From positions 41,276 through 105,275 of the IMG/VR virus record IMGVR_UViG_3300037418_002743: a stretch of DNA of 64,000 nucleotides, one strand, 5' to 3'. Source of the DNA: a virus. Positions 26 through 38,551 of the stretch are shown one piece after another. The notes below the pieces were generated by a model. The model did not search any database. It saw only the letters and a program-made list of their open reading frames with translations, and was not told the DNA's origin. The position numbers were made by a program, and so were the translations under genes. Numbering within the stretch: the first letter of the stretch is position 1; each line of letters starts with the position of its first letter.

Positions 26-232
26 TCAGAGGCGGCGGGCGTTCATCCAGTCCGCGCCCCAGCGGGCGGAGCCCTCGGCGCAGAGTCGCAGCCACTGCTC
101 GTTGTTGGTCGTGGCGACGGCGAGGGCGGCCTCGGAGCCGTCGGCGAAGGCGAGGTCCCGGGTCTCGGCGAGCCCGTCGGCCAGGGCTCCGGCCTCGGCG
201 GCGGTGAGGTTCGCGGTCATCGTGTTCGTCAT
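26..232 (-). CDS. Small hypothetical protein (MTNTM..., leaderless, 68 aa)
   Basis: ATG 6 nt downstream of TATGGT -10 of operator-promoter at 243-259. Confidence 0.75.
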   Translation of the reverse strand: MTNTMTANLTAAEAGALADGLAETRDLAFADGSEAALAVATTNNEQWLRLCAEGSARWGADWMNARRL

Positions 233-238
233 GTGTTC

Positions 239-266
239 ACCATACCGCGCGGTGCGGGAGCTGCAA
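239..266 (-). promoter_or_regulatory. Operator-promoter cassette 1 (TTGCAG-N16-TATGGT; palindrome 243-259)
   Basis: TACCGCG-CGG-TGCGGGA between -35 and -10. Confidence 0.8.
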
Positions 267-272
267 GACCTT

Positions 273-629
273 CTATCCGAGGATGTTCCGGCCGTCCGCA
301 TCCGCCTCGGCGAGGTAGCGCTGCACGTCCTGGATCGCGTGCGCGGCGATGTCGAGGTCGAGGAGCCGACGCACCGGCTCCTTCTCCGCGTCGAGCGCGG
401 CATCCGACACGGCCCGCACCGAGACGCGCTCCATGCGGAGCAGGCGGGCCAGGGCGGCGTGTCCGCGCGTCGTCAGCTCCGCCTCGATGTCGACACGACG
501 CCGGCGGGCGGACATCCGGCCCTCGGTGCGCAGGGAGTGAAGCTCGACGTCGTCGGCGGCCGCCTCCGCGGCGATCGCGGCCCGGTACTCGGCGACGGCG
601 GCGGTGAGGGTGCGCACGGGTGCGGTCAC
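273..629 (-). CDS. Hypothetical helical protein (118 aa)
   Basis: ORF with GAAGGAG RBS, preceded by CUGCCA hairpin. Confidence 0.75.
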   Translation of the reverse strand: MTAPVRTLTAAVAEYRAAIAAEAAADDVELHSLRTEGRMSARRRRVDIEAELTTRGHAALARLLRMERVSVRAVSDAALDAEKEPVRRLLDLDIAAHAIQDVQRYLAEADADGRNILG

Positions 630-658
630 GGTGTTCTCCTTCGGGAGGGAAGACGGAC

Positions 659-680
659 GGCCGTGCTGGCAGGCGCGGCC
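659..680 (-). promoter_or_regulatory. CUGCCA-loop hairpin
   Basis: GGCCGCGC-CTGCCA-GCACGGCC on minus strand, followed by TCCCTCCC and RBS. Confidence 0.7.
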
Positions 681-717
681 CTCCGGGGTGAGCGTGAGCG
701 GAATCGTGGGGAGTCGG

Positions 718-1491
718 CTATGACGCGGAGCGCACGTGAAGCTTCCCGTCCTCCCCGTGGACGAAGTGCCCGGACTCGCAGAGCTGGGCGATCACCGCGT
801 CAATGCCGTCGGTGCGCTCCAGCAGGGTGGCGATCGCCGTCTTGCTCGTCCCGCCGTGCCACTCCCCCCGCTCGATCCGCTCCCTGATCTTCGCCACGGT
901 CGCGGCGATGGCCCGCCGACGCTGCCCGCCGACGATCGCCGCGGCCTCCTCGAGCGACCGCGCCGGAGCGGGCCCGGGCTTCGTCTTGCGGTTGATGCGG
1001 TAGGTCTCGACCTGGCTGCGGAGCCAGTAGCCGTCGAGCACCGGGCGCGGGAAGCCGGTGTTGTCCCGGCCCGCCTTCCGGTCGGACTCCAGCTGGTAGA
1101 CGCGCTGGCGGGTCACGCCCAGCTTCTCGGCGAACTCCGCGACGCTCACGACGTCCGGCATCGCGACGGCGTGGAGCCGCTGGGCCACTACCTCATCGGA
1201 GGTGAGCTCGACCTGATCCCAGCCGGTCACGCGGTAGCCGTGCCCGGCGAGGACGCCGACCAGGCAGTTCGCGGCGCGGGTGAGCCGACTGGGCAGCGCG
1301 GTGGGCGTGACCTCGTCGTCATCGTCAATGAGGACCTGGCCCTGCACGAGGTACGCGCCGTCCTGATCGTAGGAGCACATTCCGCCGATGAGCTGGGAGT
1401 CGGCAGCCCAGGCGCGGGACAGCGTCATGGCGGCGTCGGGGTGCATGGGGCGATCAAGGCGGACGCCGAGAGTCAGCGCGTGCGATGTCAT
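718..1491 (-). CDS. AlpA/excisionase-like HTH DNA-binding protein with extra N- and C-terminal domains
   Basis: VVSVAEFAEKLGVTRQRVYQL...FPRPV...WLRSQVETY motif; leaderless-type promoter TTGACG-N17-GATGAT just upstream. Confidence 0.7.
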   Translation of the reverse strand: MTSHALTLGVRLDRPMHPDAAMTLSRAWAADSQLIGGMCSYDQDGAYLVQGQVLIDDDDEVTPTALPSRLTRAANCLVGVLAGHGYRVTGWDQVELTSDEVVAQRLHAVAMPDVVSVAEFAEKLGVTRQRVYQLESDRKAGRDNTGFPRPVLDGYWLRSQVETYRINRKTKPGPAPARSLEEAAAIVGGQRRRAIAATVAKIRERIERGEWHGGTSKTAIATLLERTDGIDAVIAQLCESGHFVHGEDGKLHVRSAS

Positions 1492-1598
1492 GTCAGCATC
1501 ATCCGGTGTCGCTTTCACATCGTCAAGCCGGGCTAGGTGCCCGGTTAGGCTGGCCGGGCGGCCGGGGGAGGGTCCCACTCCCCCGACCGCCCGTTCCC

Positions 1599-1856
1599 TC
1601 AGTTCATCCCCGGGTCGGGATCGCTCCCGAGCACCGGCCCCAGCCGGAACCACCTCGGCCCTTCCGCCTCCGCGAAGGAGGCGATGGCTGCCGCAAGCAG
1701 CAGCTCAAGCGCCTCGTCCTCGAGGACGATCCGGGGGAGGTGCCATGCCGTGCCGGGTACCGCCTTGCTCTGGATCACCAGGTCCTCCTCGTTGAGGTGG
1801 AAGGTGTATCCGCGAGCGCGGAGCCCGAGGACGAACTGATCGGCCAGCTCAGTCAC
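1599..1856 (-). CDS. Hypothetical protein
   Basis: GTG start with AGGAG RBS. Confidence 0.6.
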   Translation of the reverse strand: MTELADQFVLGLRARGYTFHLNEEDLVIQSKAVPGTAWHLPRIVLEDEALELLLAAAIASFAEAEGPRWFRLGPVLGSDPDPGMN

Positions 1857-1933
1857 TGAGCCGCTCCTCTCTGTTGAGTTATCGCTTACAAGAACTAACG
1901 TAAGTCTCGCGGGAGGGTCGCGCAAGACTTATC

Positions 1934-1950
1934 TACCGCGCTCTGCGGTA
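1934..1950 (-). promoter_or_regulatory. Operator palindrome 2 (degenerate promoter)
   Basis: TACCGCG-CTC-TGCGGTA. Confidence 0.65.
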
Positions 1951-2077
1951 GCGTCCGCACCGTTGGATTGACGGGTAATTAGGACCATGACCTGCGTCAA
2001 CCAGAGAGAGTCACCGCGTGAGGCCGGGCGGGTGATCCCGCACCTCCGTCGAGGGGACCGCCCGTCGCCGTCACCGC

Positions 2078-2359
2078 TCACCGGGCACGTTTGATCCCTG
2101 CCCGGTCCGCTACCGCCTCCCAGGAGTCCGCGTGCCCCTCCGCCTGCAGCGCCTGAGCGCGCCGGTAGAGCGCGACCTCGCGGTCCGCGGTCCTGTACTG
2201 CCGGGAGGCCGGATCCGCCCCGTCGCGGCGCGCTGTGGCGTCCCGGAGCCACTCCGCGATCCGCTCCGCCGGGTAGACGTGCGCGATGTTGAGCGCCTGC
2301 GCCTCCGCGGTGCGGGCCGCCCGCTCCGCCATGCGCTCCAGCGCGGTCTTCGCGGGCAT
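2078..2359 (-). CDS. Hypothetical protein
   Basis: ORF coupled to upstream gene. Confidence 0.65.
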   Translation of the reverse strand: MPAKTALERMAERAARTAEAQALNIAHVYPAERIAEWLRDATARRDGADPASRQYRTADREVALYRRAQALQAEGHADSWEAVADRAGIKRAR

Positions 2360-2556
2360 CACGCGCCCCAGATCGCGACGGCGGAGGCCTCGACGAGGAC
2401 GGTGTGCCGCCCGTCGGTCACGTACACGCAGCCCTCGTGGGCGTGCGAGTGCACCTCGACGGGCGTGCCGACCATGATCACGCCGTACTTCTCGCCGGGC
2501 CGGGCGATCATGATGTCCCGGGTGGTCTCCCCCGCGAGCATCACCGGCGCGCTCAT
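2359..2556 (-). CDS. Small hypothetical beta-rich protein (65 aa)
   Basis: Overlapping start/stop coupling. Confidence 0.65.
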   Translation of the reverse strand: MSAPVMLAGETTRDIMIARPGEKYGVIMVGTPVEVHSHAHEGCVYVTDGRHTVLVEASAVAIWGA

Positions 2557-2783
2557 CGCGCACCCGCCGCCGGGTAGAGCCGCGCCATCGTCGTGTGCAG
2601 CTCTCCGCCGTGGTCGCGGAGGCTCAGGCGCGCGAGCTCCTGGACGCGGCCGGTGTGCGGGGACCGGATCGAGAAGACCGCCTCGATGACGACGGGGGCG
2701 GGCGCGCCGGAGGGCATGGTCCAGCCGAGCGGGAGCAGCGCCTCCCAGCGGGGGGCGTGCGGGTCGAGGTCGGTGAGCTGCAT
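2553..2783 (-). CDS. Small hypothetical protein (76 aa)
   Basis: GAAGGAGACC RBS; CUGCCA hairpin upstream. Confidence 0.7.
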   Translation of the reverse strand: MQLTDLDPHAPRWEALLPLGWTMPSGAPAPVVIEAVFSIRSPHTGRVQELARLSLRDHGGELHTTMARLYPAAGAR

Positions 2784-2802
2784 GACGGTCTCCTTCGGGG
2801 AG

Positions 2803-2828
2803 GGCCGGGCGCTGGCAGGCGCCCGGCC
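2803..2828 (-). promoter_or_regulatory. CUGCCA-loop hairpin (perfect 10-bp stem)
   Basis: GGCCGGGCGC-CTGCCA-GCGCCCGGCC. Confidence 0.75.
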
Positions 2829-2850
2829 GGCGGGAGGGATGAGGGGCGTG

Positions 2851-3201
2851 TCAGGCGGGGTCGACGCCGTAGACGACGGCGCCCGGGTACTCGTCCTCGA
2901 ACGCCTCTCGGGCGGCGAGGGAGTCGACCGCGGTCACGGTGGCGATGTCGCGGATGGTGCGGCCGCGGGAGGTCTCGGTGCGGTACCAGACGCGGTAGGG
3001 CCGGGGGCCGTTCGCGGCGGCGGCTCGCTCGGCGGCGGTGAGTTCGTCGGCGATGTGGCCGATCGCGAGGGCGCCGACGGTGCCGGAGGCGACGAGGGCG
3101 GCGGCGGTGGCGCGGGCGGCGGCGGTGGCGCGGAGGTCCTCGCGGAGCTGGGCGGCGGTGCGGGAGGGAAGGGCGGAGGTGGCAGCCTCGGGGTTCGTCA
3201 T
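2851..3201 (-). CDS. Hypothetical protein (MTNPE..., leaderless)
   Basis: ATG 6 nt from -10 of cassette 3. Confidence 0.75.
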   Translation of the reverse strand: MTNPEAATSALPSRTAAQLREDLRATAAARATAAALVASGTVGALAIGHIADELTAAERAAAANGPRPYRVWYRTETSRGRTIRDIATVTAVDSLAAREAFEDEYPGAVVYGVDPA

Positions 3202-3207
3202 GCGTTA

Positions 3208-3235
3208 ACCATACCGCATGACGCGGTGAGCACAA
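3208..3235 (-). promoter_or_regulatory. Operator-promoter cassette 3 (TTGTGC-N16-TATGGT)
   Basis: Palindrome TACCGCA-TGA-CGCGGTG at 3212-3228. Confidence 0.8.
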
Positions 3236-3541
3236 GGGTGGCGACACCATTGCCGTTCCCCTCCGCACGTCCGGCCCCCATCTCGGTCCGCTCGGAGGGG
3301 TGCCATGCCTCCGCCCTTAGGCTTCCTAGTACGGCGATCAGGAGGGCTCGGGACGGCGTCAGGACGGCCGTCCGCTACTGGTGCACACGCGATGAAGGAG
3401 GACGTCTCTCATGACCCACAGACGGGCCCGGGCCCCGGCCCGGACAGTGAGATCGGGACCGCCCTGGTCCGGCGATCCCGATCTCGGCAAGACGCTCATC
3501 GGCACGATCAACCAGGCAGTTTCTCGAACGGAGGTCTCGCG

Positions 3542-3805
3542 ATGGCGAGAGTACGCAAGGAAGTCAAGCGGGTCGTGGCGCGGCTCCGGCCCACGACGGA
3601 GGCGGGCCCGATCGGGTGGCCGGACGTGGCCCTGGGCGTGATCGCCCTGCTCGGGCCGCTGCTCGCGACCAGCACGACGGACCCGGCGGCGACGGAGCGG
3701 CTCGTGCGGATCCTCCGCTGGGTGTGCGCGCTCGTCTTCCTGGGCGCGGTCGCCGTGCTGGCGTACCGGCTCCCCTTCGGCGAGCTGGTCACGCTCCTGA
3801 CCTGA
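3542..3805 (+). CDS. Small two-TM membrane protein
   Basis: GGAGG RBS; two hydrophobic segments; followed by hairpin. Confidence 0.6.
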   Translation: MARVRKEVKRVVARLRPTTEAGPIGWPDVALGVIALLGPLLATSTTDPAATERLVRILRWVCALVFLGAVAVLAYRLPFGELVTLLT

Positions 3806-3823
3806 CCCGCCCCGCTCCGGCGC

Positions 3824-3858
3824 GAAGGCCCGTCCCCTCTCCCGTGGGGCGGGCCTTC
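3824..3858. terminator. Hairpin between convergent genes
   Basis: GAAGGCCCG...CGGGCCTTC inverted repeat. Confidence 0.55.
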
Positions 3859-3900
3859 GTCGTGGGGCCGGCGGCTCCCCGAGGAACTTCGACCCGATCT

Positions 3901-4020
3901 TCAACGACGTCGGGCGGCGGCGCGGAGGTCCCGCAGCTCCGCAAGCTCGGCGTCGGTGAGCCCGCGCCGGCGCATCAGGGCCTCGAGGTCGTCGAGGCGG
4001 TCGAGGTCGTCGAGGTCCAT
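3901..4020 (-). CDS. Micro-protein MDLDDLDRLDDLEALMRRRGLTDAELAELRDLRAAARRR (39 aa)
   Basis: GAAGGAGACC RBS and CCCTCCC motif; below ORF track cutoff. Confidence 0.6.
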   Translation of the reverse strand: MDLDDLDRLDDLEALMRRRGLTDAELAELRDLRAAARRR

Positions 4021-4050
4021 GACGGTCTCCTTCGGGAGGGGCCGGAGCGG

Positions 4051-4272
4051 CTAGAAGCCGCGGTAGGCGTCCTTGACCGCCTCGAATCGATCCCGGAACT
4101 CGTTCATGACGCGGAGGTCGCGGCGGAGCAGGCGGCCGCGCTCCGGGGTCACGACGCCGTTGGGGATCTCGCGGAGCAGGGCGCAGAGGCGCTTGTGCTC
4201 GGCCCAGAGGTCGGTGATGGAGAGGGTGGAGGGGCGGCCGGTGGTCTTGCGGGGCTTCGTGGTGTTCGTCAT
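4051..4272 (-). CDS. Small hypothetical protein (MTNTT..., leaderless)
   Basis: ATG 6 nt from -10 of cassette 4. Confidence 0.75.
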   Translation of the reverse strand: MTNTTKPRKTTGRPSTLSITDLWAEHKRLCALLREIPNGVVTPERGRLLRRDLRVMNEFRDRFEAVKDAYRGF

Positions 4273-4278
4273 GCGTTA

Positions 4279-4306
4279 ACAATACCGCGCTACACGGTAG
4301 TTACAA
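4279..4306 (-). promoter_or_regulatory. Operator-promoter cassette 4 (TTGTAA-N16-TATTGT)
   Basis: TACCGCG-CTA-CACGGTA at 4283-4299. Confidence 0.8.
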
Positions 4307-4338
4307 GGGCTGTAGAGCGAGACCGGTAAAGAAATAAC

Positions 4339-4375
4339 GCGGCCCGGTCCCCCACCAGCCGAGGACCGGGCCGCT
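4339..4375. terminator. GC-rich hairpin terminator
   Basis: GCGGCCCGGTCC...GGACCGGGCCGC with TTATTTCTTT on minus strand. Confidence 0.6.
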
Positions 4376-4404
4376 CTACCGGCGGGACGCCGCCGGGGCT
4401 CACA

Positions 4405-4797
4405 TCACGACAGCTGGAAGACCAGCTGCGCGGAGTCGATCTCGGAGGAGAAGGAGCGGAGCAGGTGCTTCGCCGCGACCCGGACCGCGGAGCCAGCGGC
4501 GTTGGCGAAGGCGGACGACGTCGTCGCCTCGGAGTCGAGGGCCTGACCGATCCGGCTCGCGAGCGAGTCGCGGCGGCGCTCGGCCGGCGCCTTGAGTGTC
4601 GCGGCGAGGATCGCGACCTTCGTCTCGGCGATCACCGCGTCGCGGAGGTAGTGCTCCGCGGCGTAGACGAGGGACGGGCAGTCGGCGATCATCGCCCGCT
4701 GCTTGGTGACGGTCTGCTCGGCGGAGGCGAGCTGGACCTTGAGCGCGTGCTCGAGCTCGACGTCGGTCAGGGCGGCGGAGGCGGGCTTGGTGCTCAT
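4405..4797 (-). CDS. Hypothetical helical protein (130 aa)
   Basis: AAGGAGACC RBS; leader carries CUGCCA hairpin (4825-4844). Confidence 0.75.
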   Translation of the reverse strand: MSTKPASAALTDVELEHALKVQLASAEQTVTKQRAMIADCPSLVYAAEHYLRDAVIAETKVAILAATLKAPAERRRDSLASRIGQALDSEATTSSAFANAAGSAVRVAAKHLLRSFSSEIDSAQLVFQLS

Positions 4798-4858
4798 CGA
4801 GGTCTCCTTGGTTCGGGAGGGAAGGGGCCGCTGGCAGGCGGTCCGTCTTACGTTGTTG

Positions 4859-4886
4859 AGCTTACCGCGGTGCGCGGTGAGTACAA
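4859..4886 (-). promoter_or_regulatory. Operator-promoter cassette 5 (TTGTAC-N16-TAAGCT)
   Basis: TACCGCG-GTG-CGCGGTG at 4863-4879. Confidence 0.8.
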
Positions 4887-4890
4887 GGGC

Positions 4891-5115
4891 TTATGCCCAG
4901 GTGGTTCGGGCCGGGATCTCGACGCCGTACCGGCGGCCGAGGGCGTGCACGGCGGCCTCGTCGGCGACCCGCTTCGTCCAGAGGTGCACGCCGCCGGTGG
5001 CGTTGTAGGCGTCGACGATGAAGCGCTCGTAGTAGGGGTTCCAAGTCACGTAGGCGAAGGGGAGGGCCGGGGTGCCGTCGTCCTCGATGTCCGGGGTGAT
5101 GGTGTTCGTCGTCAT
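4891..5115 (-). CDS. Small hypothetical protein (MTTNT..., leaderless)
   Basis: ATG 6 nt from -10 of cassette 6. Confidence 0.75.
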   Translation of the reverse strand: MTTNTITPDIEDDGTPALPFAYVTWNPYYERFIVDAYNATGGVHLWTKRVADEAAVHALGRRYGVEIPARTTWA

Positions 5116-5121
5116 GACTTC

Positions 5122-5149
5122 ACCATACCGCAGCATGCGGGAGGATCAA
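5122..5149 (-). promoter_or_regulatory. Operator-promoter cassette 6 (TTGATC-N16-TATGGT)
   Basis: TACCGCA-GCA-TGCGGGA at 5126-5142. Confidence 0.8.
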
Positions 5150-5295
5150 GCCTTTCGGCGGGAGGTGACCCAGCGGTCGACCTCGACGCCGCGCTCGTAC
5201 TCGCGGACCTCGAAGTAGACGCGCGGGTCACCGGCCGGGCCGGCGAGCGGCTCCGGGTCCCGGACGGTGCCGGTGAAGTCGGCGGGGATGTTCAT
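5146..5295 (-). CDS. Micro-protein MNIPADFTGTVRDP... (49 aa)
   Basis: GGAG RBS; TGA stop lies within the -35 of cassette 6. Confidence 0.6.
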   Translation of the reverse strand: MNIPADFTGTVRDPEPLAGPAGDPRVYFEVREYERGVEVDRWVTSRRKA

Positions 5296-5307
5296 GACGG
5301 GCTCCGA

Positions 5308-5610
5308 TCAGGCGGCGTGGAAGGGGATCTCGGCGCGGGTGCGGCCCCACGCCCCGCCTTGCGCGGCGGTGTGGCGGCGGAGCGCGTCGAGGTTGGCGAA
5401 GGCGGCGATGGGGCGGGAGCCGATGAGCACTTGGACGGTCGCGCCGCCGGGAGTGCCGTGGAGCGGGATCTCGGTGCGGGTGTAGCCGAGGAGCGCGGAG
5501 CCGCCGCGGGCGGTCATCCAGCGGCGCATCGCGGTGATGTCGGCGAAGGCGCGGATGGGGCGGCCGGCGTCGAGGAGGAGGGTCGCGGTGGGGGCTTCAG
5601 TGTTCGTCAT
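5308..5610 (-). CDS. Hypothetical protein with internal tandem duplication (MTNTE..., leaderless)
   Basis: RPIRAFADITAMRRW...TRTEIPLH / RPIAAFANLDALRRH...TRAEIPFH. Confidence 0.75.
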   Translation of the reverse strand: MTNTEAPTATLLLDAGRPIRAFADITAMRRWMTARGGSALLGYTRTEIPLHGTPGGATVQVLIGSRPIAAFANLDALRRHTAAQGGAWGRTRAEIPFHAA

Positions 5611-5616
5611 GTGATT

Positions 5617-5644
5617 ACCATACCGCGTACCGCGGGAGGTTCAA
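5617..5644 (-). promoter_or_regulatory. Operator-promoter cassette 7 (TTGAAC-N16-TATGGT)
   Basis: TACCGCG-TAC-CGCGGGA at 5621-5637. Confidence 0.8.
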
Positions 5645-5684
5645 GCCCTTCGGCCGGGCGGGTTCGCCCGGCCGGGCCGGAGCC

Positions 5685-5987
5685 CTAGTGCCCGAGGCAC
5701 TTCGCGCAGTCGATCTCGTACCGAGAGGACACGGCGGAGGCGGCGGAGCGGGCGTTGCGGTAGCGCTCGGCGCCGCAGTAGACGCCCACCGTCTTGCCGA
5801 CCGACTCCCCGTAGGCGTTGAGGTAGCGGGTGACCGTGGCGCGGTGCACGGTCTTGGCCTTGCCGACGACCGCGCGGCCGTCGGTGTTCTCCTCGACGGT
5901 GACGACCTGCTTGTGCGCCGGCTTGCCGGCGTCGGCGGCGATCTCGGCGGCGGTGGCGGGGCGGGTGGTGACCGTGGCGTTCGTCAT
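5685..5987 (-). CDS. Hypothetical protein, possible Zn-binding (H...C...CxxC) (MTNAT..., leaderless)
   Basis: VHRA...YCG...DCAKC; ATG 6 nt from -10. Confidence 0.75.
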   Translation of the reverse strand: MTNATVTTRPATAAEIAADAGKPAHKQVVTVEENTDGRAVVGKAKTVHRATVTRYLNAYGESVGKTVGVYCGAERYRNARSAASAVSSRYEIDCAKCLGH

Positions 5988-5993
5988 GTCTTA

Positions 5994-6021
5994 AAGATAC
6001 CGCGTCACGCGGGAGTTTCAA
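5994..6021 (-). promoter_or_regulatory. Operator-promoter cassette 8 (TTGAAA-N16-TATCTT)
   Basis: TACCGCG-TCA-CGCGGGA at 5998-6014. Confidence 0.8.
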
Positions 6022-6203
6022 GCCGCTGAGGCAAGCCAGGTCCAGAACGCTCGCACCGGCCGGGCGATCGCGTCGCAGACGGCGGCGAGGAAGTGCACGA
6101 CGTCCGCGCTGAACGCCACGTACGGGGCGGTGGCCACCGCCGCGACGAGCGCGAGGGCGGCGAGGACCAGGAGGGCGACGGCGGCGCGCTCGGTGGCGTC
6201 CAT
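6018..6203 (-). CDS. Small membrane protein
   Basis: GAAGGAGACC RBS; hydrophobic; stop overlaps -35 of cassette 8. Confidence 0.65.
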   Translation of the reverse strand: MDATERAAVALLVLAALALVAAVATAPYVAFSADVVHFLAAVCDAIARPVRAFWTWLASAA

Positions 6204-6229
6204 GACAGGTCTCCTTCGGATGGGGTCGT

Positions 6230-6460
6230 TCACCGGATGCCGGCGACGTACAGCAGGCCCTCGATGAGCCGGAGCACGAAGACGCCGGCGTCGATGATCG
6301 TGTGGCCGATCAGGGTCCACACGGTCTCGATCATCCCGACGTAGGCGGCCGGGCCGACGATCAGGACGAGGAGCAGGACCGGGAGCAGGCCGAGGCCGGC
6401 GGGGGCGACGGCGTCGATGATCGTGCGGGCGGCGGAGGCGGTGCGTGCGGTGTTCGTCAT
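6230..6460 (-). CDS. Small membrane protein (MTNTA..., leaderless)
   Basis: Hydrophobic; cassette 9 upstream. Confidence 0.7.
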   Translation of the reverse strand: MTNTARTASAARTIIDAVAPAGLGLLPVLLLVLIVGPAAYVGMIETVWTLIGHTIIDAGVFVLRLIEGLLYVAGIR

Positions 6461-6467
6461 GCCGTTG

Positions 6468-6538
6468 AGCTTGCCGCGCGGTGCGGTGTGGTTCAAGAGG
6501 TAGTTTCCTCTTGAGTCCGCCGCATAGAGCGGTATGGT
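6468..6538. promoter_or_regulatory. Divergent operator-promoter cassettes 9 (-, 6472-6488) and 10 (+, 6518-6534; TTGAGT-N16-TATGGT)
   Basis: TGCCGCG-CGG-TGCGGTG and CGCCGCA-TAG-AGCGGTA. Confidence 0.75.
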
Positions 6539-6544
6539 TGTTGC

Positions 6545-6787
6545 ATGACGACGACGGAGCTTGCCGCGGACCACCTCTCCGACGAGGACTTCGCCCTCGC
6601 CGAGCGGATCCTCGACCGCCTCTGCGCCAAGGGCGACCGGAGGGCGTACAGCCCCTCCGAGATCGGCCGGATCGCGAAGGCCGAGACCTCCGCAGTGCGC
6701 CGGGTCCTCCCCGTGCTCGTCGAGGACGGGAACCTCGCCGTGGCCGGGAACGGCGCCTGGCGCCGCTACACCTTCGTGATGGGCTGA
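6545..6787 (+). CDS. Small winged-HTH DNA-binding protein (leaderless)
   Basis: YSPSEIGRIAKAETSAVRRVLPVLVEDGNL...RRY wHTH pattern. Confidence 0.7.
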   Translation: MTTTELAADHLSDEDFALAERILDRLCAKGDRRAYSPSEIGRIAKAETSAVRRVLPVLVEDGNLAVAGNGAWRRYTFVMG

Positions 6788-12084: not shown

Positions 12085-12762
12085 TCAGCCCGCCCGCAGG
12101 GGGCAATCGCACTCGCCGTCGGTGCGGGCGTCGGGGTTGCAGCGCCCGGTGCACGGCACGTCGACGAGGCGGGCGAGGAGGCGGAGGCACTCGGCGCCGG
12201 CGCGGACGTCGCCCCCGGCGGTGTGGTCGCCGATCTCGACGTCGAGGCGCTCGCAGATCTCCCGGAACGACAGCGGCGGGTGGTCGATCGGGAGGCGGAA
12301 GGCGCCGCGGGCGATCGAGCCGAGGTTCTCCATCCGGTAGTGCCACGGCCGCACCTCGAGGCAGAGGTCCGGGTCCAGGTGCCGGGCGAAGGCCTTCGCG
12401 ATGAAGGCGGCGTCGAAGGCGGGGTTCACGGCGACCAGGGCGCGGCGCGGGACCGGCGGGGCGTCCTCGTCCGGGACGTGATGGATCGGGCCGCCGAACT
12501 GCTCCCAGAGCCGCTGCAGCTCCGGGCCGTTGTCCATCACGTAGGGCTGCCAGAGGCCGCGCTCGACGTAGCGGTTGACCTGCAGGGCCTCGGGCTCCGC
12601 GGCCGCGAGGATCTCCCGCGGGTTGTGCTTCGGGACGAAGCAGCCCGTCTCCCCGGTGGTGATGTTCTCCCAGCCGATCTCGACGGCGTCGTGCCGCTCC
12701 GGGTCGAGCCCGTTGGTCTCGGTGTCGACGAAGATCAGCTCCGTCGGCTCGTAGTCGCTCAT
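12085..12762 (-). CDS. DEDDh 3'-5' exonuclease (DnaQ-like)
   Basis: FVDTETNGLD...EIGW...NPAFDAAF...HTAGGDV. Confidence 0.85.
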   Translation of the reverse strand: MSDYEPTELIFVDTETNGLDPERHDAVEIGWENITTGETGCFVPKHNPREILAAAEPEALQVNRYVERGLWQPYVMDNGPELQRLWEQFGGPIHHVPDEDAPPVPRRALVAVNPAFDAAFIAKAFARHLDPDLCLEVRPWHYRMENLGSIARGAFRLPIDHPPLSFREICERLDVEIGDHTAGGDVRAGAECLRLLARLVDVPCTGRCNPDARTDGECDCPLRAG

Positions 12763-14234
12763 CCTTCGAAGCTCTCCTCATCACGCGGGTCCGGCTCCTC
12801 GCAGAGCCCGCACTCGCCGTTCATCAGGACCGGAACGGTGGTGATCCGTCCGTCGTCGCTCTTGGTCGGGTGCCCGGCCTCGTGCCAGGCGGCGGTGCCG
12901 GGAGTCGGCAGGTCGCCGGCCGGCGCCTCCGCGGCCGGGGTGTCGGTCGCGCCGAGCACCTCGGCGACGAACTCCTGCAGGCGGCCGCCGTCCTTCGCCG
13001 CGGTGAGCTGGCGGATCACCTCGAGCCCCTCCGCGCGGGACAGCTCCGACGTCGACCCGACGGGGACCGAGCGCCCGGCGAGGCGGGACGCGATGAGCTT
13101 CCGGCCGGCGTCGTCGCCGACCCCGCCGGCGCCGATGAGCCGCCCGATCTGCGTCGTCATCGCCCGCGAGATCGCCTCGTCCGCCGCCGGGGCGGCCGCG
13201 GTCGAGGCGGGCGGCTCCGGCGGAGGCGGCACGTCGTCCTCCCGCGGGGCCGGCACGGTCGCGGCCGCGTCGACGTCGCGGAGGGCGTTGGTGTCGTCGT
13301 CGGTCTCGACGTCGATCACCGCGCCCTGGATCGCGCCGCGGCCCGGCTCCGGCTCCGGGTGCCGCGCGGTCAGCATCTCGTCGTAGTCGTCCTGCCCAGC
13401 GGGCTTGTAGGACAGGCGGACCGCGCCGTCGACCTCGGTCGCCGCGGTGAGCAGCCGGTCCGTCGACTTCGGAGCCCACCGCTTCGCGCGGAGGAAGCAC
13501 GTCTTGATCGCCATCTGATCGAAGCCCGTGCCGCCGTCGGGGCCGTCCATGTCGAACCAGGGGCCGGCACCCTGGGCGTTGCCGTCGTTGTCCCGGACGA
13601 CCTCGCCCTTGAAGCGCTTGGTCCCCATCGCGTGGTGATCGCGCCAGGCGATCGCCTCCTCGCGGGTCATCACCCAGAACAGCGGGTCCGCGTCGTGGAA
13701 GAACAGGACCGCGTAGTAGGCGACGACCGGGCCGCGCTCCTTCCCGATCCCGGCCGGACGGTGCACGAGCTTCTCGTCGAGTCCGAACTCGACGTGGAAC
13801 TCGTCGTTGGCGTGCACGGCCCGGCCGACGATCTTCTTGACCGCGCCGGAGCGGTGGACCAGCTCGACGTAGCCCTGGTAGCCGATGACGATCTGCGCCT
13901 CGAGGCGGTTCCCCTTCTTCCAGTTCTTGAAGGGGATCAACCAGCCCTGGCCCATGACGCCCGGGCGGAGCCCGAGCTGGGCGAAGGTCATCAGCCCGCC
14001 GAGGACGGTCTCCGGCACGCACTCCGCGAGGTCCGGGTTCTGCCGGAGCAGCGTCATGGCGTCGCGGATGAGCTGCTGCGCCTCGAAGCCGCGCGGCATC
14101 GCCATCGCGAACTGCTCATGCATGTCCTCGATCTGCTTGCGGAGCGTCGGCCGCTCCCGCTGCTCGACCTCACCTCCGCCGCGGCGCGCGACCTGCGCGC
14201 GGGCGTTGACACGCTCCGCGAGTCCGTTGCCCAT
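12759..14234 (-). CDS. recT: RecT-family ssDNA annealing recombinase with C-terminal extension
   Basis: LAECVPETVLGGLMTFAQLGLRPG...IGYQGYVELVHRSG...FDQMAIKT. Confidence 0.9.
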   Translation of the reverse strand: MGNGLAERVNARAQVARRGGGEVEQRERPTLRKQIEDMHEQFAMAMPRGFEAQQLIRDAMTLLRQNPDLAECVPETVLGGLMTFAQLGLRPGVMGQGWLIPFKNWKKGNRLEAQIVIGYQGYVELVHRSGAVKKIVGRAVHANDEFHVEFGLDEKLVHRPAGIGKERGPVVAYYAVLFFHDADPLFWVMTREEAIAWRDHHAMGTKRFKGEVVRDNDGNAQGAGPWFDMDGPDGGTGFDQMAIKTCFLRAKRWAPKSTDRLLTAATEVDGAVRLSYKPAGQDDYDEMLTARHPEPEPGRGAIQGAVIDVETDDDTNALRDVDAAATVPAPREDDVPPPPEPPASTAAAPAADEAISRAMTTQIGRLIGAGGVGDDAGRKLIASRLAGRSVPVGSTSELSRAEGLEVIRQLTAAKDGGRLQEFVAEVLGATDTPAAEAPAGDLPTPGTAAWHEAGHPTKSDDGRITTVPVLMNGECGLCEEPDPRDEESFEG

Positions 14235-15328
14235 CACTTGCTCCCAGGGGTGTCGTCGATCATCGAGTCGAGGGTCTTGCGGGGGCGGAGCACCCGGCCG
14301 CGGTGCGCGGCGTACTGCTCCGGGTGCTTGGACTTGACCGCGTCGAGGTCGAGGACCTCCGTCGTCTTGCTGCACGCGGCCGCGAGGTCCGGGTACGCGG
14401 CGGTGAAGGCGGACTTCGACATCTGCCCGGTCTGGCCGAAGGTGGCGAGGATGTTCGCCTTCCCGGCCTTGGTGTCGTCGATCGGCGCGGTGAGGTCCCG
14501 GACGACGAGCTCGGCGTCGCCGATGAGGTGCCGGAGCTTGGAGTCCCAGCCGGTGACCTCGGCCTCGGCCATGCGGAGCCGCTCCTTCGCCTCCCGGAGG
14601 TGGCGGAAGGCGTCGAGGATGTCCGCGGTGATCTCGATCGCCTTGCCGGCGTGCGCGGTCGCGTACATCTCGCGGATGACCTCGTTGGTGGCCTCCGTGT
14701 CGTCGAGCGGCGGCATCTCGTCCGCGACGACGTAGGACTCCCACCAGTCCCGCTCGAACGCGACGAGGTCGGCGATCAGCGCCTCGTCCCGCTCGATGCG
14801 GCGCCAGACGAGGGTCTGCCCGCCGATGAGCCCGGCGATCCAGGCGTGCGGGAGCCCGGTCACCGCCATCCCGTGCTGCACCTGCAGCTCGGCGTGGTCC
14901 GGCGCCTGCTCGTTCCCCCACTCGTCCCGCCGCCACAGCGAGCAGGTCTTCCCCTCGTACAGCCCTCCGTCGTTGGTGACCCCGTCGGGGCTGTAGAGCA
15001 TGAAGGGGTTCACGAGGGACCGCTGCATCCCCGCCGCCGCGACGGTGATCCCGGTGCGCCGGGACCACTCGTCCCGGACGACCGGCTCGAGGAGGGTGCC
15101 CCAGAGCGCGGGCTCGTTCGGCGGCTCGTCGGAGTCCTCGTCGACCCGGTCCGTCTTGTCCAGCCACACCCGGACCGGGGAGGAGAACTTGTTGAGCCCG
15201 AGGACGGTCGAGGCGTCGGATCCGCCGATGCCCTCCCGCCGGGCCTCCAGCCACTCGTCCCGGTCCGGGTCCGGCGGGAGCACCTGCTCGGAGCCCGGGA
15301 GGGTCATCACGGCGGCCGGCGCGCTCAT
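14234..15328 (-). CDS. YqaJ-like viral recombinase exonuclease
   Basis: EWLEARREGIGGSDAS...WGTLLEP...SPDG...EGKT...QVQHGMAVTG. Confidence 0.9.
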   Translation of the reverse strand: MSAPAAVMTLPGSEQVLPPDPDRDEWLEARREGIGGSDASTVLGLNKFSSPVRVWLDKTDRVDEDSDEPPNEPALWGTLLEPVVRDEWSRRTGITVAAAGMQRSLVNPFMLYSPDGVTNDGGLYEGKTCSLWRRDEWGNEQAPDHAELQVQHGMAVTGLPHAWIAGLIGGQTLVWRRIERDEALIADLVAFERDWWESYVVADEMPPLDDTEATNEVIREMYATAHAGKAIEITADILDAFRHLREAKERLRMAEAEVTGWDSKLRHLIGDAELVVRDLTAPIDDTKAGKANILATFGQTGQMSKSAFTAAYPDLAAACSKTTEVLDLDAVKSKHPEQYAAHRGRVLRPRKTLDSMIDDTPGSK

Positions 15329-15480
15329 GCTCGGGCCCCGCACATCGGCTCGGCGTCCTCGTCGAGGTGCTCCGTGCAGTGGTGGCACGGGGCGGAGACG
15401 AAGCACGTGCAGCCGCCGCAGTCGGCGAACTCGTCGCGGTCGTCCAGGTCGGTCCAGTCGTCCTCGGGCACGTCGATCAC
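15325..15480 (-). CDS. Cys-rich acidic micro-protein
   Basis: CGGCTCFVSAPCHHC. Confidence 0.55.
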   Translation of the reverse strand: MIDVPEDDWTDLDDRDEFADCGGCTCFVSAPCHHCTEHLDEDAEPMCGARA

Positions 15481-25930: not shown

Positions 25931-25975
25931 GGTGTCCTCCGGGAGGGAAGCGGTCGTACGTGGCAGATGCGGACG

Positions 25976-26056
25976 ACCATACCGCGCTGCGCGGTATCTG
26001 TCACCTCCGACTAGTTCGGCGGGAGCGCTTGACCTTACCGCGTCACGCGGTAAGGT
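25976..26056. promoter_or_regulatory. Divergent operator-promoter cassettes 15 (-, 25980-25996) and 16 (+, 26036-26052; TTGACC-N16-TAAGGT)
   Basis: Perfect palindromes TACCGCG-CTG-CGCGGTA and TACCGCG-TCA-CGCGGTA. Confidence 0.85.
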
Positions 26057-26086
26057 AGTCACATCACCCCGACCGAGGAGGACGAC

Positions 26087-27934: not shown

Positions 27935-27958
27935 AGTGGCCACCGTGCAAGTTTCCCC

Positions 27959-27986
27959 TTGTACTTACCGCGTGACGCGGTATCTT
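27959..27986 (+). promoter_or_regulatory. Operator-promoter cassette 17 (TTGTAC-N16-TATCTT)
   Basis: TACCGCG-TGA-CGCGGTA at 27966-27982; ATG 6 nt downstream. Confidence 0.82.
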
Positions 27987-27992
27987 TAAGTC

Positions 27993-28295
27993 ATGAGCAA
28001 CGACACCGCCACCGCCGCCCCGATCGCCACCGCCTCCGGCTTCTACACCGTCGCCGTCAAGGGCCTCCGCGGCCGCAAGTGGTTCGACGCCGGCTGCGGC
28101 CGCTGCGGCGACCAGGCCTTCGTCCAGTCGCTCTGCGACTCCGTCGCCGCCGACCACCCCGAGCTGCGATTCCAGGTCATGGACCCCAAGGGCCTCACCT
28201 ACGCCCCCGACAAGTACCGCCCCTGGGCCGCCGCCTACGGCACCGAGAAGGACGACGACGTCAACGTCGACGAGCTCTCCGACGCCGAGCTCTGA
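27993..28295 (+). CDS. Small hypothetical protein (leaderless, acidic C-terminus)
   Basis: Strong GC3 bias. Confidence 0.75.
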   Translation: MSNDTATAAPIATASGFYTVAVKGLRGRKWFDAGCGRCGDQAFVQSLCDSVAADHPELRFQVMDPKGLTYAPDKYRPWAAAYGTEKDDDVNVDELSDAEL

Positions 28296-28346: not shown

Positions 28347-30692
28347 TCAGGCGGCCCCGCGGGAGAGCCGAGCCGCCGCCGCCCGGAGGTCCGCGACCAG
28401 GAACCCGCGGAGGCGCTGCCCGCCGGCCCGGCGCGGCTCCGTCGGTCGGAGGTTCGCGTCGAGCGCGGAGAGGTCCCGGCCGAGCTGCTCGGCCGCCCGC
28501 CGCTTCGCCTCCGGCTCCGCGTCCCGGTCCACCCGCCCGATCACCTCCGCCAGCCGCTGCGTCGCCACCCACTCCGCCGGCGCGCCCGGGCGGCCGAGGG
28601 CCAGCATCACGATGTCGAGCGGCTCCGGCAGGGGCGGGTGACCCGGGCGGCCGGCGTGCTGCCGCATCGCCTCGACGAGCCGCCGCCCGGCCGCCTCGAT
28701 CCCCGACGTGTCGGGAGCCGGGAGCATCCCACCCGGCGCGGGTGCGTCGGATCCGCCCTGGTCACCCGGTGCGCCCGGGTCCTCGCCCAGCAGCTCCGCC
28801 CACAGGCGGGCGTCGTCGTCCCACCCGGGTGGAAGGTCCGCGGGCGGGAGGTCCGGGTGCGGGTCACCCGCCTCCGCGGCCGGGTGGGCACCCGCCGGCT
28901 CCACCCGCTCCGGGGCGGGCGGGTCACCCGCCGGCGGGCGGGTGGGCTCCGGCGTGGGCTCCGGGCGGCCGCCCGGGTGGTCGTTGCTCATCGGCCACTC
29001 CAGTCCGTGGAGACGCGCCGCCTCGACGAGCTCGCGGTGGCGCCGGGGGTTCCAACGGTCAGCGTAGGTCCGGAGGTCCTTGGTGACATCCGGGTCAAGC
29101 CCGAAGCGCCACTGGGCGTTCCGGGCGGCGACGAGGGGGATCTCGTCGTCGAGGAGGCTCAGGGCCTTGCCGCGCATGCCGCGCTCGTCCGGCTCCCCGG
29201 TCGTCACATAGAACTGCTTGTTCCGCAGCTTGCTGGCGTCCGGGCGGCCGGGGAGCCCGGCGAGGACCTTGTCCGCGTCGTCCCGGCGCTTCGTGTAGAG
29301 CGCGATCCCGATATCGGTGTTGCGCTGCATCCCGGAGCCCGCGGCCCCGAAGGAGGAGAAGAGCTGGTCCTGGTTGGCGATCACGACGTTGACCAGCGCG
29401 GTGCGGCCGAGCGCCTTGATCTCCGCGACCATCTCCGAGGCGGTGAGCATCCGCCCGTCAACGGGCCACTTCTTCGTGGTGCCCAGGACCTTCGACGCCT
29501 CGTCCACGATCACCGTGAGCATGCCGCGGCCCGGCTCGGCCTTCCGGGCGCCCGACGTCGGGGTCCGCTGGTTGCACAGCTTCGCGTAGAGCAGCGCGTC
29601 CGCGAGCGCGGCGAGCGCCTCGTCGAGGGACTCCCCGCCGACCCGGTCGACGGCCGGGCGGTCCACCTCTCCGCGGAGCCACGGGAGCACCCAACCCCAG
29701 GCGAGCTTGACCAGCTTCTCCGTGCCGACCAGCCACACCTCCCCGGCCTTGGACGCGGTGAGGCGGGCGATCAGGACCGCGAGGAGCACACCCTTGCCGG
29801 AGCCGGTCTTGCCGACGATGTCCAGGTGCCGGGCGCCCTCGTCGGGGTGGCACAGCTGCAGCTCGATCGGCCGGTCGTCCTCGTAGCGGCCGATGAGCAT
29901 CCGGGCGTCAGCGTCGGTCGGCTCGTGATCCCAGACGAACGGGATCGGGCCCTCGTGCACCCGCTTCACGGTGAAGTGCAGGAGGAACTCCCCCATGTTG
30001 CGGCCGCGCTCCGGCACCACGTCCTGGTCCTCGAGGTCGATCCCGCGCGTCTCCTCGAACTGCATCGCCGCCTCCGTGGCGATCGCCGGGACGTCGCCGA
30101 GGAAGCCGCCGTAGGTGAGCAGCTTCTTCCCCTCGTGCCGGACCGGGCGGAGGTGCACGGTCTCGACGCCGCCCGAGGGCGAGGTGCTCACCCGGGAGAC
30201 GCGGACATCGGTGACCTGCGCGGCCGTGAGGATCCCCGGGTACGGGCCGACGTCGCCGATCGGCTGCTCCGCCCCCGCCGGCGCAGGCCCGCCCGCCGTC
30301 GTCTCCGCGGCGGCCGCGACGCGCGGCGCGGCGAGCCCGAGGAGGTAGTACCAGGACCCGAACACGCCGAACCAGACGAGCAGCCACGGCGCGAGCGGGA
30401 GCGGCGTCGGGGAGGCGATGAGCATCCAGAACCCGGCCGTGATGCCGGCGAGGCCGGCGCACCAGGAGGCGCCGCCGGTGAAGGCCCGCCCGTAGTCCCG
30501 GGCGGGGAAGAGCAGCCGGGCGCCGAGCGCGCCGAACCCGCCGACCGCGAGCCCGATCACGACGAAGGCCCACCCCTGCAGGGTGGGCACCGAGGCGGCG
30601 ATGTAGGCGGCGACGGGATAGATCAGCGGGTAGGCCCACCAGCCCTCCGGCCGTCGGAACGGCCGGAGGGCTGCGGGCTGGCTGGTGCTCAC
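28347..30692 (-). CDS. traB: TraB-like FtsK/SpoIIIE conjugative dsDNA translocase
   Basis: N-terminal TM helices, Walker A GKTGSGKG, Walker B VIVDEA, Pro-rich linker, C-terminal wHTH-like domain. Confidence 0.82.
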   Translation of the reverse strand: MSTSQPAALRPFRRPEGWWAYPLIYPVAAYIAASVPTLQGWAFVVIGLAVGGFGALGARLLFPARDYGRAFTGGASWCAGLAGITAGFWMLIASPTPLPLAPWLLVWFGVFGSWYYLLGLAAPRVAAAAETTAGGPAPAGAEQPIGDVGPYPGILTAAQVTDVRVSRVSTSPSGGVETVHLRPVRHEGKKLLTYGGFLGDVPAIATEAAMQFEETRGIDLEDQDVVPERGRNMGEFLLHFTVKRVHEGPIPFVWDHEPTDADARMLIGRYEDDRPIELQLCHPDEGARHLDIVGKTGSGKGVLLAVLIARLTASKAGEVWLVGTEKLVKLAWGWVLPWLRGEVDRPAVDRVGGESLDEALAALADALLYAKLCNQRTPTSGARKAEPGRGMLTVIVDEASKVLGTTKKWPVDGRMLTASEMVAEIKALGRTALVNVVIANQDQLFSSFGAAGSGMQRNTDIGIALYTKRRDDADKVLAGLPGRPDASKLRNKQFYVTTGEPDERGMRGKALSLLDDEIPLVAARNAQWRFGLDPDVTKDLRTYADRWNPRRHRELVEAARLHGLEWPMSNDHPGGRPEPTPEPTRPPAGDPPAPERVEPAGAHPAAEAGDPHPDLPPADLPPGWDDDARLWAELLGEDPGAPGDQGGSDAPAPGGMLPAPDTSGIEAAGRRLVEAMRQHAGRPGHPPLPEPLDIVMLALGRPGAPAEWVATQRLAEVIGRVDRDAEPEAKRRAAEQLGRDLSALDANLRPTEPRRAGGQRLRGFLVADLRAAAARLSRGAA

Positions 30693-30735
30693 GGGCGGCT
30701 CTCCCAGGGGAAGTGGGCGGGCGAAGGCAGAGACG

Positions 30736-35170: not shown

Positions 35171-35491
35171 TCAGCGGAAGCTCTCGATCCACTCGAGGAA
35201 GGCGACCGCCAGCAGGCGGGCCTTGAGCTGGGTCTCGATCTCGCGCCGGTCGCCGCCGGTGAGGGCCCGGTCGATCTCGCAGAGCGCGTCCTCGCGGCGG
35301 CCGGCCTTGTAGTCGGCCGTCATGCGGCGGACGGCGGTCGTGAAGTCGTCGAGGGAGAGGACGCCGTAGGTGACGCCGTTCCAGGTGAAGATCTCGCCCG
35401 CGTGGCGGAGCGCGCCTCGGGCCCGGATGACCGCGTAGATCAGGGCGGTGGAGGAGAGGACGGGGGCGGCGGGGGCTGCGGTGTTCGTCAT
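35171..35491 (-). CDS. Small hypothetical protein (MTNTA..., leaderless)
   Basis: Cassette 18 upstream. Confidence 0.72.
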   Translation of the reverse strand: MTNTAAPAAPVLSSTALIYAVIRARGALRHAGEIFTWNGVTYGVLSLDDFTTAVRRMTADYKAGRREDALCEIDRALTGGDRREIETQLKARLLAVAFLEWIESFR

Positions 35492-35498
35492 GTCAGTT

Positions 35499-35526
35499 AA
35501 GCTACCGCGTGTTACGGTAAGCACAA
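35499..35526 (-). promoter_or_regulatory. Operator-promoter cassette 18 (TTGTGC-N16-TAGCTT)
   Basis: TACCGCG-TGT-TACGGTA at 35503-35519. Confidence 0.75.
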
Positions 35527-35549
35527 GGCCAGTTGACGAGGGAGTTCGA

Positions 35550-36419: not shown

Positions 36420-36725
36420 GCGGGTGGGCGGGTGACACCCGGGTGCACCTCCGGGCGCGGCCGGAGTGCGTTCGCTCCGCACCCGCTCTGTGCCCGGGTG
36501 GCGCTCGGATCACGATCCGGGTGTGTGCCGCCCGCGCCCGGGTGTCGCCTGGGTGCCGCCCGGATGGCAGGTGCAGTGTCGTCGCAGGTAGCGCCCGGGT
36601 GCACCCGGGTGGCGTTCAGAGCATGCAGCGGGTGACACCCAGGTGCGCTCGGGGTGCACCCGCGACGTACCTGGGCCGCGCTCGGAGCGTCATAAGAAAC
36701 CGCTCGGGTGACGCCCGGGCGACAC
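36420..36725. repeat. Cluster of CCCGGGTG 8-bp direct repeats (clt/TRS-like or centromere)
   Basis: Perfect at 36438, 36493, 36537, 36594, 36604 plus at least 6 one-mismatch copies in an intergenic gap. Confidence 0.65.
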
Positions 36726-36804
36726 GCCGAGGGTGGCCCAAGGTCACCTTGAGCCTCACCCCGGTACCGTTCGGCAGCACCGAAGCCACCCTCCGGGAGT
36801 CACC

Positions 36805-38503: not shown

Positions 38504-38551
38504 GACGAAATGCCCCCGCACCGGCCGAAGCCAGGTGCGGGGGCGTTCGTC
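38504..38551 (-). terminator. Terminator at end of late operon
   Basis: GCCCCCGCACC...GGTGCGGGGGC hairpin. Confidence 0.65.

Follow-up and report, generated by a model that had tools for sequence, protein, structure and literature searches.

A shared promoter-operator module heads an array of small, predicted leaderless genes in a soil actinobacterial phage

Promoter-early stem-loop (PeSL) elements are regulatory cassettes found in T4-type phages (Arbiol et al. 2010, PMC2839356; Comeau et al. 2014, PMC4122927), in which a stem-loop is placed mostly between the -35 box and the -10 box, upstream of orphan genes (PMC2839356). Repeated sites of other kinds have been described from actinobacteriophages. 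Cluster O phages carry predicted leaderless SigA-type promoters and 17-bp dyads (TGTTCGG-N3-CCGAACA), most of which do not lie at promoters, and the stoperators of Cluster A are asymmetric and oriented (PMC4351075). Cluster K mycobacteriophages possess start-associated sequences (SAS/ESAS; Pope et al. 2011, PMC3203893), and leaderless genes have been described in Actinobacteria (Cortes et al. 2013, PMC3898074). Here, we analyze a 64,000-nt stretch of DNA (referred to below as the window), which forms the final 64 kb (positions 41,276 to 105,275) of the IMG/VR virus record IMGVR_UViG_3300037418_002743 (the contig; 105,275 bp; G+C content, 72%). The record is a soil actinobacterial phage, a temperate-type myovirus with a contractile tail, and the window contains an array of small genes, many of which begin with the same promoter-operator module. 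We consider that this array is probably (at a probability of roughly 0.6) a multi-promoter, repressor-controlled regulon composed of small orphan accessory genes whose 5' ends are tuned for leaderless translation.

The repeated unit is a single promoter in which a 17-bp palindrome (TACCGC-N5-GCGGTA) fills the spacer separating the -35 box from the -10 box, the final TA of the palindrome being the first TA of the -10 box. A scan for TTGNNN-N3-CCG-N7-CGG(T/C)ANNNT identified 21 copies, all at 24 to 77 kb of the contig and none among the structural genes. Twelve of these copies (ten within the window, the other two immediately to its left) are leaderless, and the remaining nine precede 5' leaders. 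The array thus continues past the left edge of the window, where two leaderless and two leadered copies are found (contig 38516 to 40502). The strict core ACCG-N7-CGGT gave 23 matches, compared with approximately 10 expected, and the palindrome is present without a TTG -35 box at three further sites (window 1934, window 25981, and contig 15860). The consensus of the leaderless subclass is cCTTGnn.CT.CCGC..GCGGTATGGT-tAAcgC-ATGACGAAC (-10 box, TATGGT), while that of the leadered subclass is gTTGAC..CCGC..GCGGTAnnnT, followed by the 5' leader. Conservation spans positions -37 to about +12; the preliminary description of this DNA had proposed a shared module of promoter, operator, and first codons of about 45 bp, and such a module exists at a conserved length of roughly 50 bp. 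A blind scan for leaderless-type promoters returned 10 promoters, every one of which carries the operator, whereas five related phage fragments have zero to two leaderless-type promoters each.

Ten genes of the window (at 232, 3201, 4272, 5115, 5610, 5987, 6460, 6545, 27993, and 35491; all positions are window coordinates unless the contig is named) had been described as starting 6 to 7 nt past the -10 hexamer without a ribosome-binding site, and all ten do so. The gap is 6 nt in eight of the genes and 7 nt at 6460 and 35491. A TTGNNN -35 box lies upstream of each gene at a spacer length of 16 bp (17 bp at 6460), and the -10 hexamer conforms to TANNNT in nine of them; at 6460 it is CAAGCT. Since just 6 to 7 nt separate the -10 box from the ATG, no Shine-Dalgarno (SD) sequence is possible in the leaderless units. 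The open reading frames (ORFs) are real genes, with G+C contents at third codon positions (GC3) of 0.95 to 0.99. An in-frame upstream start is impossible in six of the ten, and in the other four the upstream extension (GC3, 0.70 to 0.80) looks noncoding.

Seven of these genes start with ATGACGAAC (232, 3201, 4272, 5610, 5987, 6460, and 35491), as had been reported, while the remaining starts are ATGACGACGAAC at 5115, ATGACGACGACG at 6545 (+), and ATGAGCAAC at 27993 (+). The window contains ATGACGAAC 10 times (0.33 expected), a count reached by none of 100 shuffled sequences. Its occurrences at 38473, 38553, and 60907 are without an adjoining promoter-operator module and resemble ordinary coding sequence. 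The proteins encoded behind the shared start are unrelated, as the preliminary description had stated; the best E value in an all-against-all comparison was 0.027, and paralogy among the array proteins was rejected. The units at 5987 and 27993 are alike over the module and approximately 14 codons, ahead of unrelated proteins.

Conservation of the shared start is at the level of nucleotides. Threonine at codon 2 of the module genes is encoded by ACG in 10 of 11 cases, while ACC outnumbers ACG genome-wide (983 versus 514 codons) and is favored at codon 2 of the SD-led genes. The beginnings of the leaderless genes also differ in composition and folding from those of other genes. In the 12 leaderless genes, C and A are abundant over the first 42 nt and the G fraction is 0.24 (0.32 in 113 SD-led genes); the minimum free energy (MFE) of this segment is -4.8 kcal/mol, compared with -11.6 kcal/mol in the same SD-led genes (p = 6e-6). 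Nucleotides 100 to 141 of the leaderless genes fold normally. At the protein level, Thr and Ala make up 27% and 21%, respectively, of residues 2 to 13 encoded by the leaderless genes, compared with 8% and 15% for the SD-led genes. An open 5' end suits leaderless translation, and it would explain starts rich in Thr, Ala, and Asn.

It had been suggested that the units are self-contained cassettes. Each unit does have its own promoter, but several units include one to three additional SD-led genes and few have terminators. Since terminator-like hairpins are seen at just two junctions (4339 to 4374 and approximately 5650 to 5680), not all of the units are self-contained; elsewhere they abut. The packing is indeed as tight as had been claimed, the TGA stops at 5146 to 5148 and 6018 to 6020 falling within the next -35 hexamers (TTGATC and TTGAAA, respectively). 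Because leaderless genes require a 5'-terminal AUG, read-through from a preceding unit should not express the next leaderless gene, and stop codons could be tolerated inside the next -35 box without a terminator. We infer that abutting units are insulated from one another in this way. A second stereotyped start, CCCTCCCGAAGGAGACCGTC-ATG, is common to SD-led genes at 629, 2783, 4020, 4797, 6203, and 8953 (-), and this leader is often preceded by a hairpin with a CUGCCA loop (e.g., at 660 to 680, 2808 to 2830, and 4823 to 4843). The CCCTCCCGAAGGAGACCGTC leader is a separate repeated element that heads leadered genes as well as SD-led genes within units. The features of the array are listed in Table 1.

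Table 1. Positions of the modules, genes, and other features (window coordinates)
Feature	Position	Strand	Remarks
Leaderless module	224..267	-	cTTGCAG; operator TCCCGC-N5-GCGGTA; -10 TATGGT; 6 nt; ATGACGAAC
Leaderless orphan gene	26..232	-	68 aa, MTNT...; GC3 0.97; no Pfam/PHROG match
SD-led gene	273..629	-	118 aa; stop 4 nt upstream of the -35 box of the 232 unit
Helix-turn-helix (HTH) protein gene	718..1491	-	257 aa; leaderless, operator-less promoter TTGACG-17-GATGAT-6-ATG (1491-1526); candidate regulator
Operator palindrome	1934..1950	.	TACCGC-N5-GCGGTA; degenerate -35
Four-gene unit	2078..3201	-	Leaderless 2851-3201 (116 aa); SD-led/overlapping 2553-2783, 2359-2556, 2078-2359
Leaderless module	3193..3236	-	TTGTGC; CACCGC-N5-GCGGTA; TATGGT; ATGACGAAC
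Membrane-protein gene	3542..3805	+	87 aa; opposite strand; within ~790-bp block (about 3115-3918) missing in variant X3
Two-gene unit	3901..4272	-	Leaderless 4051-4272 (73 aa); SD-led 3901-4020 (39 aa)
Leaderless module	4264..4307	-	TTGTAA; TACCGT-N5-GCGGTA; TATTGT; ATGACGAAC
Intrinsic-terminator-like hairpin	4339..4374	-	14 pairs; T-rich tail; after gene 4405-4797
Leadered unit	4405..4887	-	Promoter-operator TTGTAC, CACCGC-N5-GCGGTA, TAAGCT; leader with CUGCCA hairpin and SD; 130-aa gene 4405-4797
Leaderless unit	4891..5150	-	Module 5104-5150; 74-aa gene starting ATGACGACGAAC; gene body 4870-5109 replaced in X3
Two-gene unit	5146..5645	-	Module 5602-5645; leaderless 5308-5610 (100 aa, internal repeat); second gene SD-led 5146-5295 (49 aa), TGA inside next -35
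Leaderless unit	5685..6022	-	Module 5979-6022; 100-aa gene; conserved Cys71, Cys94, Cys97
Two-gene unit	6018..6497	-	Module 6452-6497 (17-bp spacer, -10 CAAGCT); leaderless 6230-6460 (76 aa, hydrophobic); second gene SD-led 6018-6203 (61 aa, hydrophobic), TGA inside next -35
Divergent leaderless unit	6510..6787	+	Module 6510-6553; 80-aa protein 6545-6787, winged-helix-like; candidate regulator
RecT and YqaJ-type exonuclease pair	12759..15343	-	RecT 12759-14237; exonuclease 14234-15343
Leaderless unit	27958..28295	+	Starts ATGAGCAAC; 100 aa; module and ~14 codons resemble the 5987 unit
Leaderless unit	35171..35527	-	Starts ATGACGAAC; 7-nt gap; 106 aa

On this basis, each unit would be fired by one host-type (i.e., sigma-70/HrdB-like) promoter with a palindrome-filled 16-bp spacer. 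Bound to the palindrome, a dimeric DNA-binding protein of the phage would obstruct RNA polymerase, and the units would consequently switch together; for a protein bound in the spacer, repression would most simply be the outcome. The candidate binders are the protein encoded at 6545 to 6787 and the HTH protein encoded at 718 to 1491. The former looks like a winged-helix regulator (Atlas feature score, 0.93; TM, about 0.7). The HTH gene has its own leaderless promoter without the palindrome, an arrangement that would be appropriate for a repressor produced constitutively. In the leaderless subclass, transcription would begin at the A of the ATG, giving an mRNA that starts with AUGACGAAC, and the A/C-rich Thr, Ala, and Asn codons that follow AUGACGAAC would hold the 5' end unfolded for SD-independent ribosome loading. 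The preference for ACG, the existence of two subclasses, and the module and approximately 14 codons shared by the 5987 and 27993 units suggest that the copies descend from one another; the exact nine letters of the start would then be a product of duplication. As a side effect, the conserved cores may provide short patches of homology for gene swaps between related phages.

Several points weigh against this explanation. The transcription starts at the ATG are predictions from sequence, an activator or a host factor could use the palindrome just as well, and the binding protein is a candidate. In addition, the avoidance of G leaves the choice of ACG over ACC unexplained, so that the requirement for an open 5' end accounts for the exact 9-mer only in part.

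Two observations concern paired promoters. The divergent promoters of the 6460 and 6545 genes (6461 to 6545) have -35 boxes 14 nt apart and are framed by an AAGAGG-N6-CCTCTT inverted repeat. At 25956 to 26060, two palindrome promoters stand back to back, at 25981 (-; degenerate, with GTGACA as its -35 box) and 26029 (+), adjoining a dip in the G+C content to 63% at 26 to 28 kb; this region may be a genetic switch.

The resemblance to the PeSL elements of T4-like phages, to which the preliminary description had drawn attention, is apt, since the layout of a dyad within a promoter before orphan genes matches. Both systems have a repeated sigma-70-type promoter directly upstream of small orphan genes in a plastic nonstructural region, and in both the dyad lies in the spacer or over the -10 box (here, it fills the spacer and shares a TA with the -10 box). 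They also have in common that the stop codon of the upstream gene can lie within the motif and that blocks distinguish close relatives, with some block ends falling in the motif (here, just 3 of 12 ends in the one variant compared). However, the present array is from a high-GC actinobacterial phage that is related to the T4-type phages neither in sequence nor by lineage. The PeSL dyad is a strong terminator stem-loop, whereas the one described here is conserved in sequence, folds weakly, and is operator-like. The AT-rich upstream element of the PeSL is missing. Furthermore, the PeSL ends with an SD sequence and a start codon, while the present motif has no SD sequence and ends with the start codon and two further codons.

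The comparison with actinobacterial systems is similarly mixed. As with the Cluster A stoperators and Cluster O dyads, approximately 20 to 30 copies of one 13- to 17-bp site are spread over nonstructural genes, and one phage protein presumably reads all of the sites; Cluster O also has predicted leaderless SigA promoters. The difference is that here nearly every site is inside a promoter spacer, and neither of the two known systems has a fixed start-codon context. The conserved inverted repeats of phiC31 are another set of dispersed repressor sites in a temperate actinophage. The Cluster K SAS is likewise a stereotyped repeat tied to the translation starts of many nonstructural actinophage genes, but it is a 13-bp sequence found at the ribosome site of leadered genes, just upstream of their start codons, whereas the repeat described here comprises the promoter, the operator, and the first three codons of leaderless genes without a ribosome site. 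The leaderless genes of Actinobacteria likewise have no SD sequence and a TANNNT -10 box that precedes the start codon by a few bases; their cellular promoters are unrelated to one another, while the twelve copies in this phage share an operator and a 9-nt start. Integron cassettes are promoterless, with attC sites and an adjacent integron integrase; the present units have their own promoters, and the only tyrosine recombinase found is approximately 23 kb away. We see in the array a fresh version of a known phage design, as opposed to a system of a new kind; what is novel is the fixed leaderless start, together with its unfolded 5' end.

If the palindrome acted as proposed for the PeSL, it would be a structural RNA or DNA stem-loop attenuating upstream read-through and not an operator. 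Its location in the -35/-10 spacer is that of the commonest PeSL class, and most of the units have no other terminator. As RNA, however, the palindrome forms stems of 4 to 6 bp with no U tract (MFE, -7 to -14 kcal/mol), which fold no better than shuffled sequence (z, -2.1 to +1.3). Of the 20 tabulated copies, 18 have GCGGTA as their right arm, whereas several left arms occur (TACCGC, TCCCGC, CACCGC, or CGCCGC), and these differences are not matched by compensating changes on the right. Because changes in the arms are uncompensated, although the arm sequence itself is conserved, and because the fold is weak, the palindrome fits a protein site better than a structural RNA, and we regard the stem-loop function as very unlikely. 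We attach slightly less credence still to the idea that MTN(T) is a functional N-terminal peptide (e.g., a processing, acetylation, or targeting tag) maintained by selection on the protein. The enrichment of Thr and Ala in residues 2 to 13 relative to the SD-led genes would be expected of such a tag, but the predominance of ACG in a genome that prefers ACC places the conservation at the nucleotide level, and the MTN start is missing from the SD-led neighbors within the same units. Moreover, the N termini of the homologs of the 5987 protein, which are short and Thr rich and precede a conserved core beginning at R9, vary in length and sequence.

The proposal that the module is a recombination joint deserves closer attention. 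According to this explanation, the module would mainly be a PeSL-like joint at which whole gene units are moved, inside one phage or from one phage to another, by homologous or RecT-mediated exchange between module copies, and in-frame fusion of any captured ORF would be made possible by the shared first codons. The phage does encode a RecT (PF03837; E value, 2.4e-31) adjoining a YqaJ-type exonuclease, as the preliminary description had assumed; the PeSL layout is the same (PMC2839356), and the 5987 and 27993 units show the same head before unrelated proteins. The comparator was X3, a 38.5-kb contig from another soil metagenome (approximately 98.6% identical), which is a single variant read as alignment coordinates. 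Over 20 kb, X3 exhibited six block differences from the phage, four of which cluster within 3.2 kb of the array. In one of them, the gene at 4891 to 5115 is replaced (238 nt versus 204 nt), and the ends of the replacement lie at 5109, within ATGACGA/CGAAC, and at 4870, at the center of the next operator; this is the pattern expected from exchange between module cores. In X3 and another variant (X2), 143 nt (1935 to 2077) are replaced by 20 nt, with the end of the indel exactly at the operator edge, 1934. Gene content had been predicted to change at cassette boundaries in relatives, and in this variant it does so in part: 3 of 12 block ends fall in modules (0.4 to 0.7 expected; Poisson p = 0.007 to 0.03).

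The other nine ends lie outside modules, and much else argues against the joint as the main role. The approximately 790-bp block missing in X3, which holds one module and the opposite-strand membrane-protein gene, is bounded by a 13-nt exact coding direct repeat, GGCGCGGAGGTCC (3127 to 3139 and 3919 to 3931; approximately 20 to 26 nt if imperfect matches are included), which suggests that either the sequence between the repeats was deleted or a single gene was split by an insertion. (This repeat encodes DLRA(T)AAAR in the genes at 2851 to 3201 and 3901 to 4020.) The intragenomic copies of the module are poor homology substrates, with a mean identity of 63% and a longest exact match of 10 nt at the median and 23 nt at most; ectopic homologous exchange is therefore unlikely for most pairs of copies. 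Conserved promoters would mark the ends of alignments under any mechanism, no block change is seen at the five module copies located in the 9 kb to the left, and the comparison was made with the alignment coordinates of one genome. We therefore judge a main role as a joint to be unlikely, while a joint function is plausible as a secondary property of the regulon favored above. We are equally doubtful of an extended version, in which the approximately 50-bp unit is a portable gene-capture head whose promoter, operator, start codon, and unstructured Thr/Ala-rich leader peptide move together, by RecT-assisted exchange of cores or by duplication, and become fused in frame to foreign ORFs.

Pfam and PHROG searches assigned the array proteins to no family, except for phrog_7658 (unknown function) in the case of the 6545 protein, and PDB sequence searches with the 6545 and HTH proteins yielded nothing meaningful; these results point neither toward nor away from the suggested host-takeover or anti-defense roles. 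The 5987 protein (5685 to 5987) has 11 homologs (66 to 90% identity), in which Cys71, Cys94, and Cys97 are invariant and whose genes are located on contigs of at most 104,644 bp, including ones of 104,644, 102,856, and 87,034 bp. An AlphaFold model of this protein (predicted local distance difference test score, 74.8) had no PDB fold match at an E value of ≤0.001. The 100-aa leaderless protein encoded at 5308 to 5610 is an internal duplication with halves sharing RPI.AFA....A.RR...A.GG......R.EIP.H, and the underlying DNA repeat (5354 to 5427 and 5501 to 5574) is 70% identical.

Searches for the module in other genomes were largely negative. The pattern CCGC-N5-GCGGTA-N3-T-N6-ATGACGAAC had no match in viral contigs, three single chance matches in genome contigs, and five in metagenome contigs. 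In protein-anchored locus searches, neither the HTH gene nor the gene at 4405 to 4797 was matched in viral contigs, and the latter was not matched in metagenome contigs either; the 5987-family alignment found no match in viral contigs. Five IMG/VR relatives (terminase, 61 to 86% identical) have only structural genes in common with the phage, and no true module, array protein, or comparable leaderless promoter family was found in them. A single match to the module pattern with one mismatch in one relative (G001) was rejected as a true module, its TTG -35 box being missing. No close DNA match was present in INPHARED phages or PLSDB plasmids, and a homolog of the 5987 protein had no tblastn match in them.

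The terminase, portal, and capsid genes of the phage lie at 0 to 10 kb of the contig, and the lysis, baseplate, and contractile-tail genes lie at 44 to 64 kb of the window. The long nonstructural arm between these blocks is mainly on the minus strand and encodes a tyrosine recombinase (the only one found; contig 14.7 kb, approximately 23 kb from the nearest module of the array), the RecT/exonuclease pair, a RusA-like resolvase, ParA, and an FtsK/TraB-like ATPase. The presence of the ATPase (28347 to 30869) and ParA (36712 to 37665) in a contractile-tailed phage suggests plasmid-like maintenance or transfer functions. Since minus-strand structural genes run off both ends of the record (contig 1 to 10 kb and window 44 to 64 kb), the record looks like a circularly permuted, complete or near-complete genome. 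The public sequencing runs that contain DNA of this phage are soil and rhizosphere metagenomes, one of which may be its source, and no RNA run was listed among them.

If the regulon is as proposed, about 21 promoters would be switched simultaneously by a single phage protein, and each small gene would depend on its own promoter for expression, with compact, terminator-free packing and insulation of the accessory genes. Should the doubtful gene-capture version apply, newly acquired genes would at once be regulated and SD independent, and high-GC phages would have a leaderless equivalent of PeSL shuffling; the array can in any case be used to probe whether repeated regulatory motifs guide gene exchange in non-T4 phages. 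In high-GC hosts, the promoter-operator pair could also be used as an expression part that is compact, repressible, and SD free. Finally, twelve promoters with the same core before different genes constitute a natural test set for the translatability of leaderless mRNAs in Actinobacteria, for which the weak folding of the first 42 nt offers a directly testable rule.

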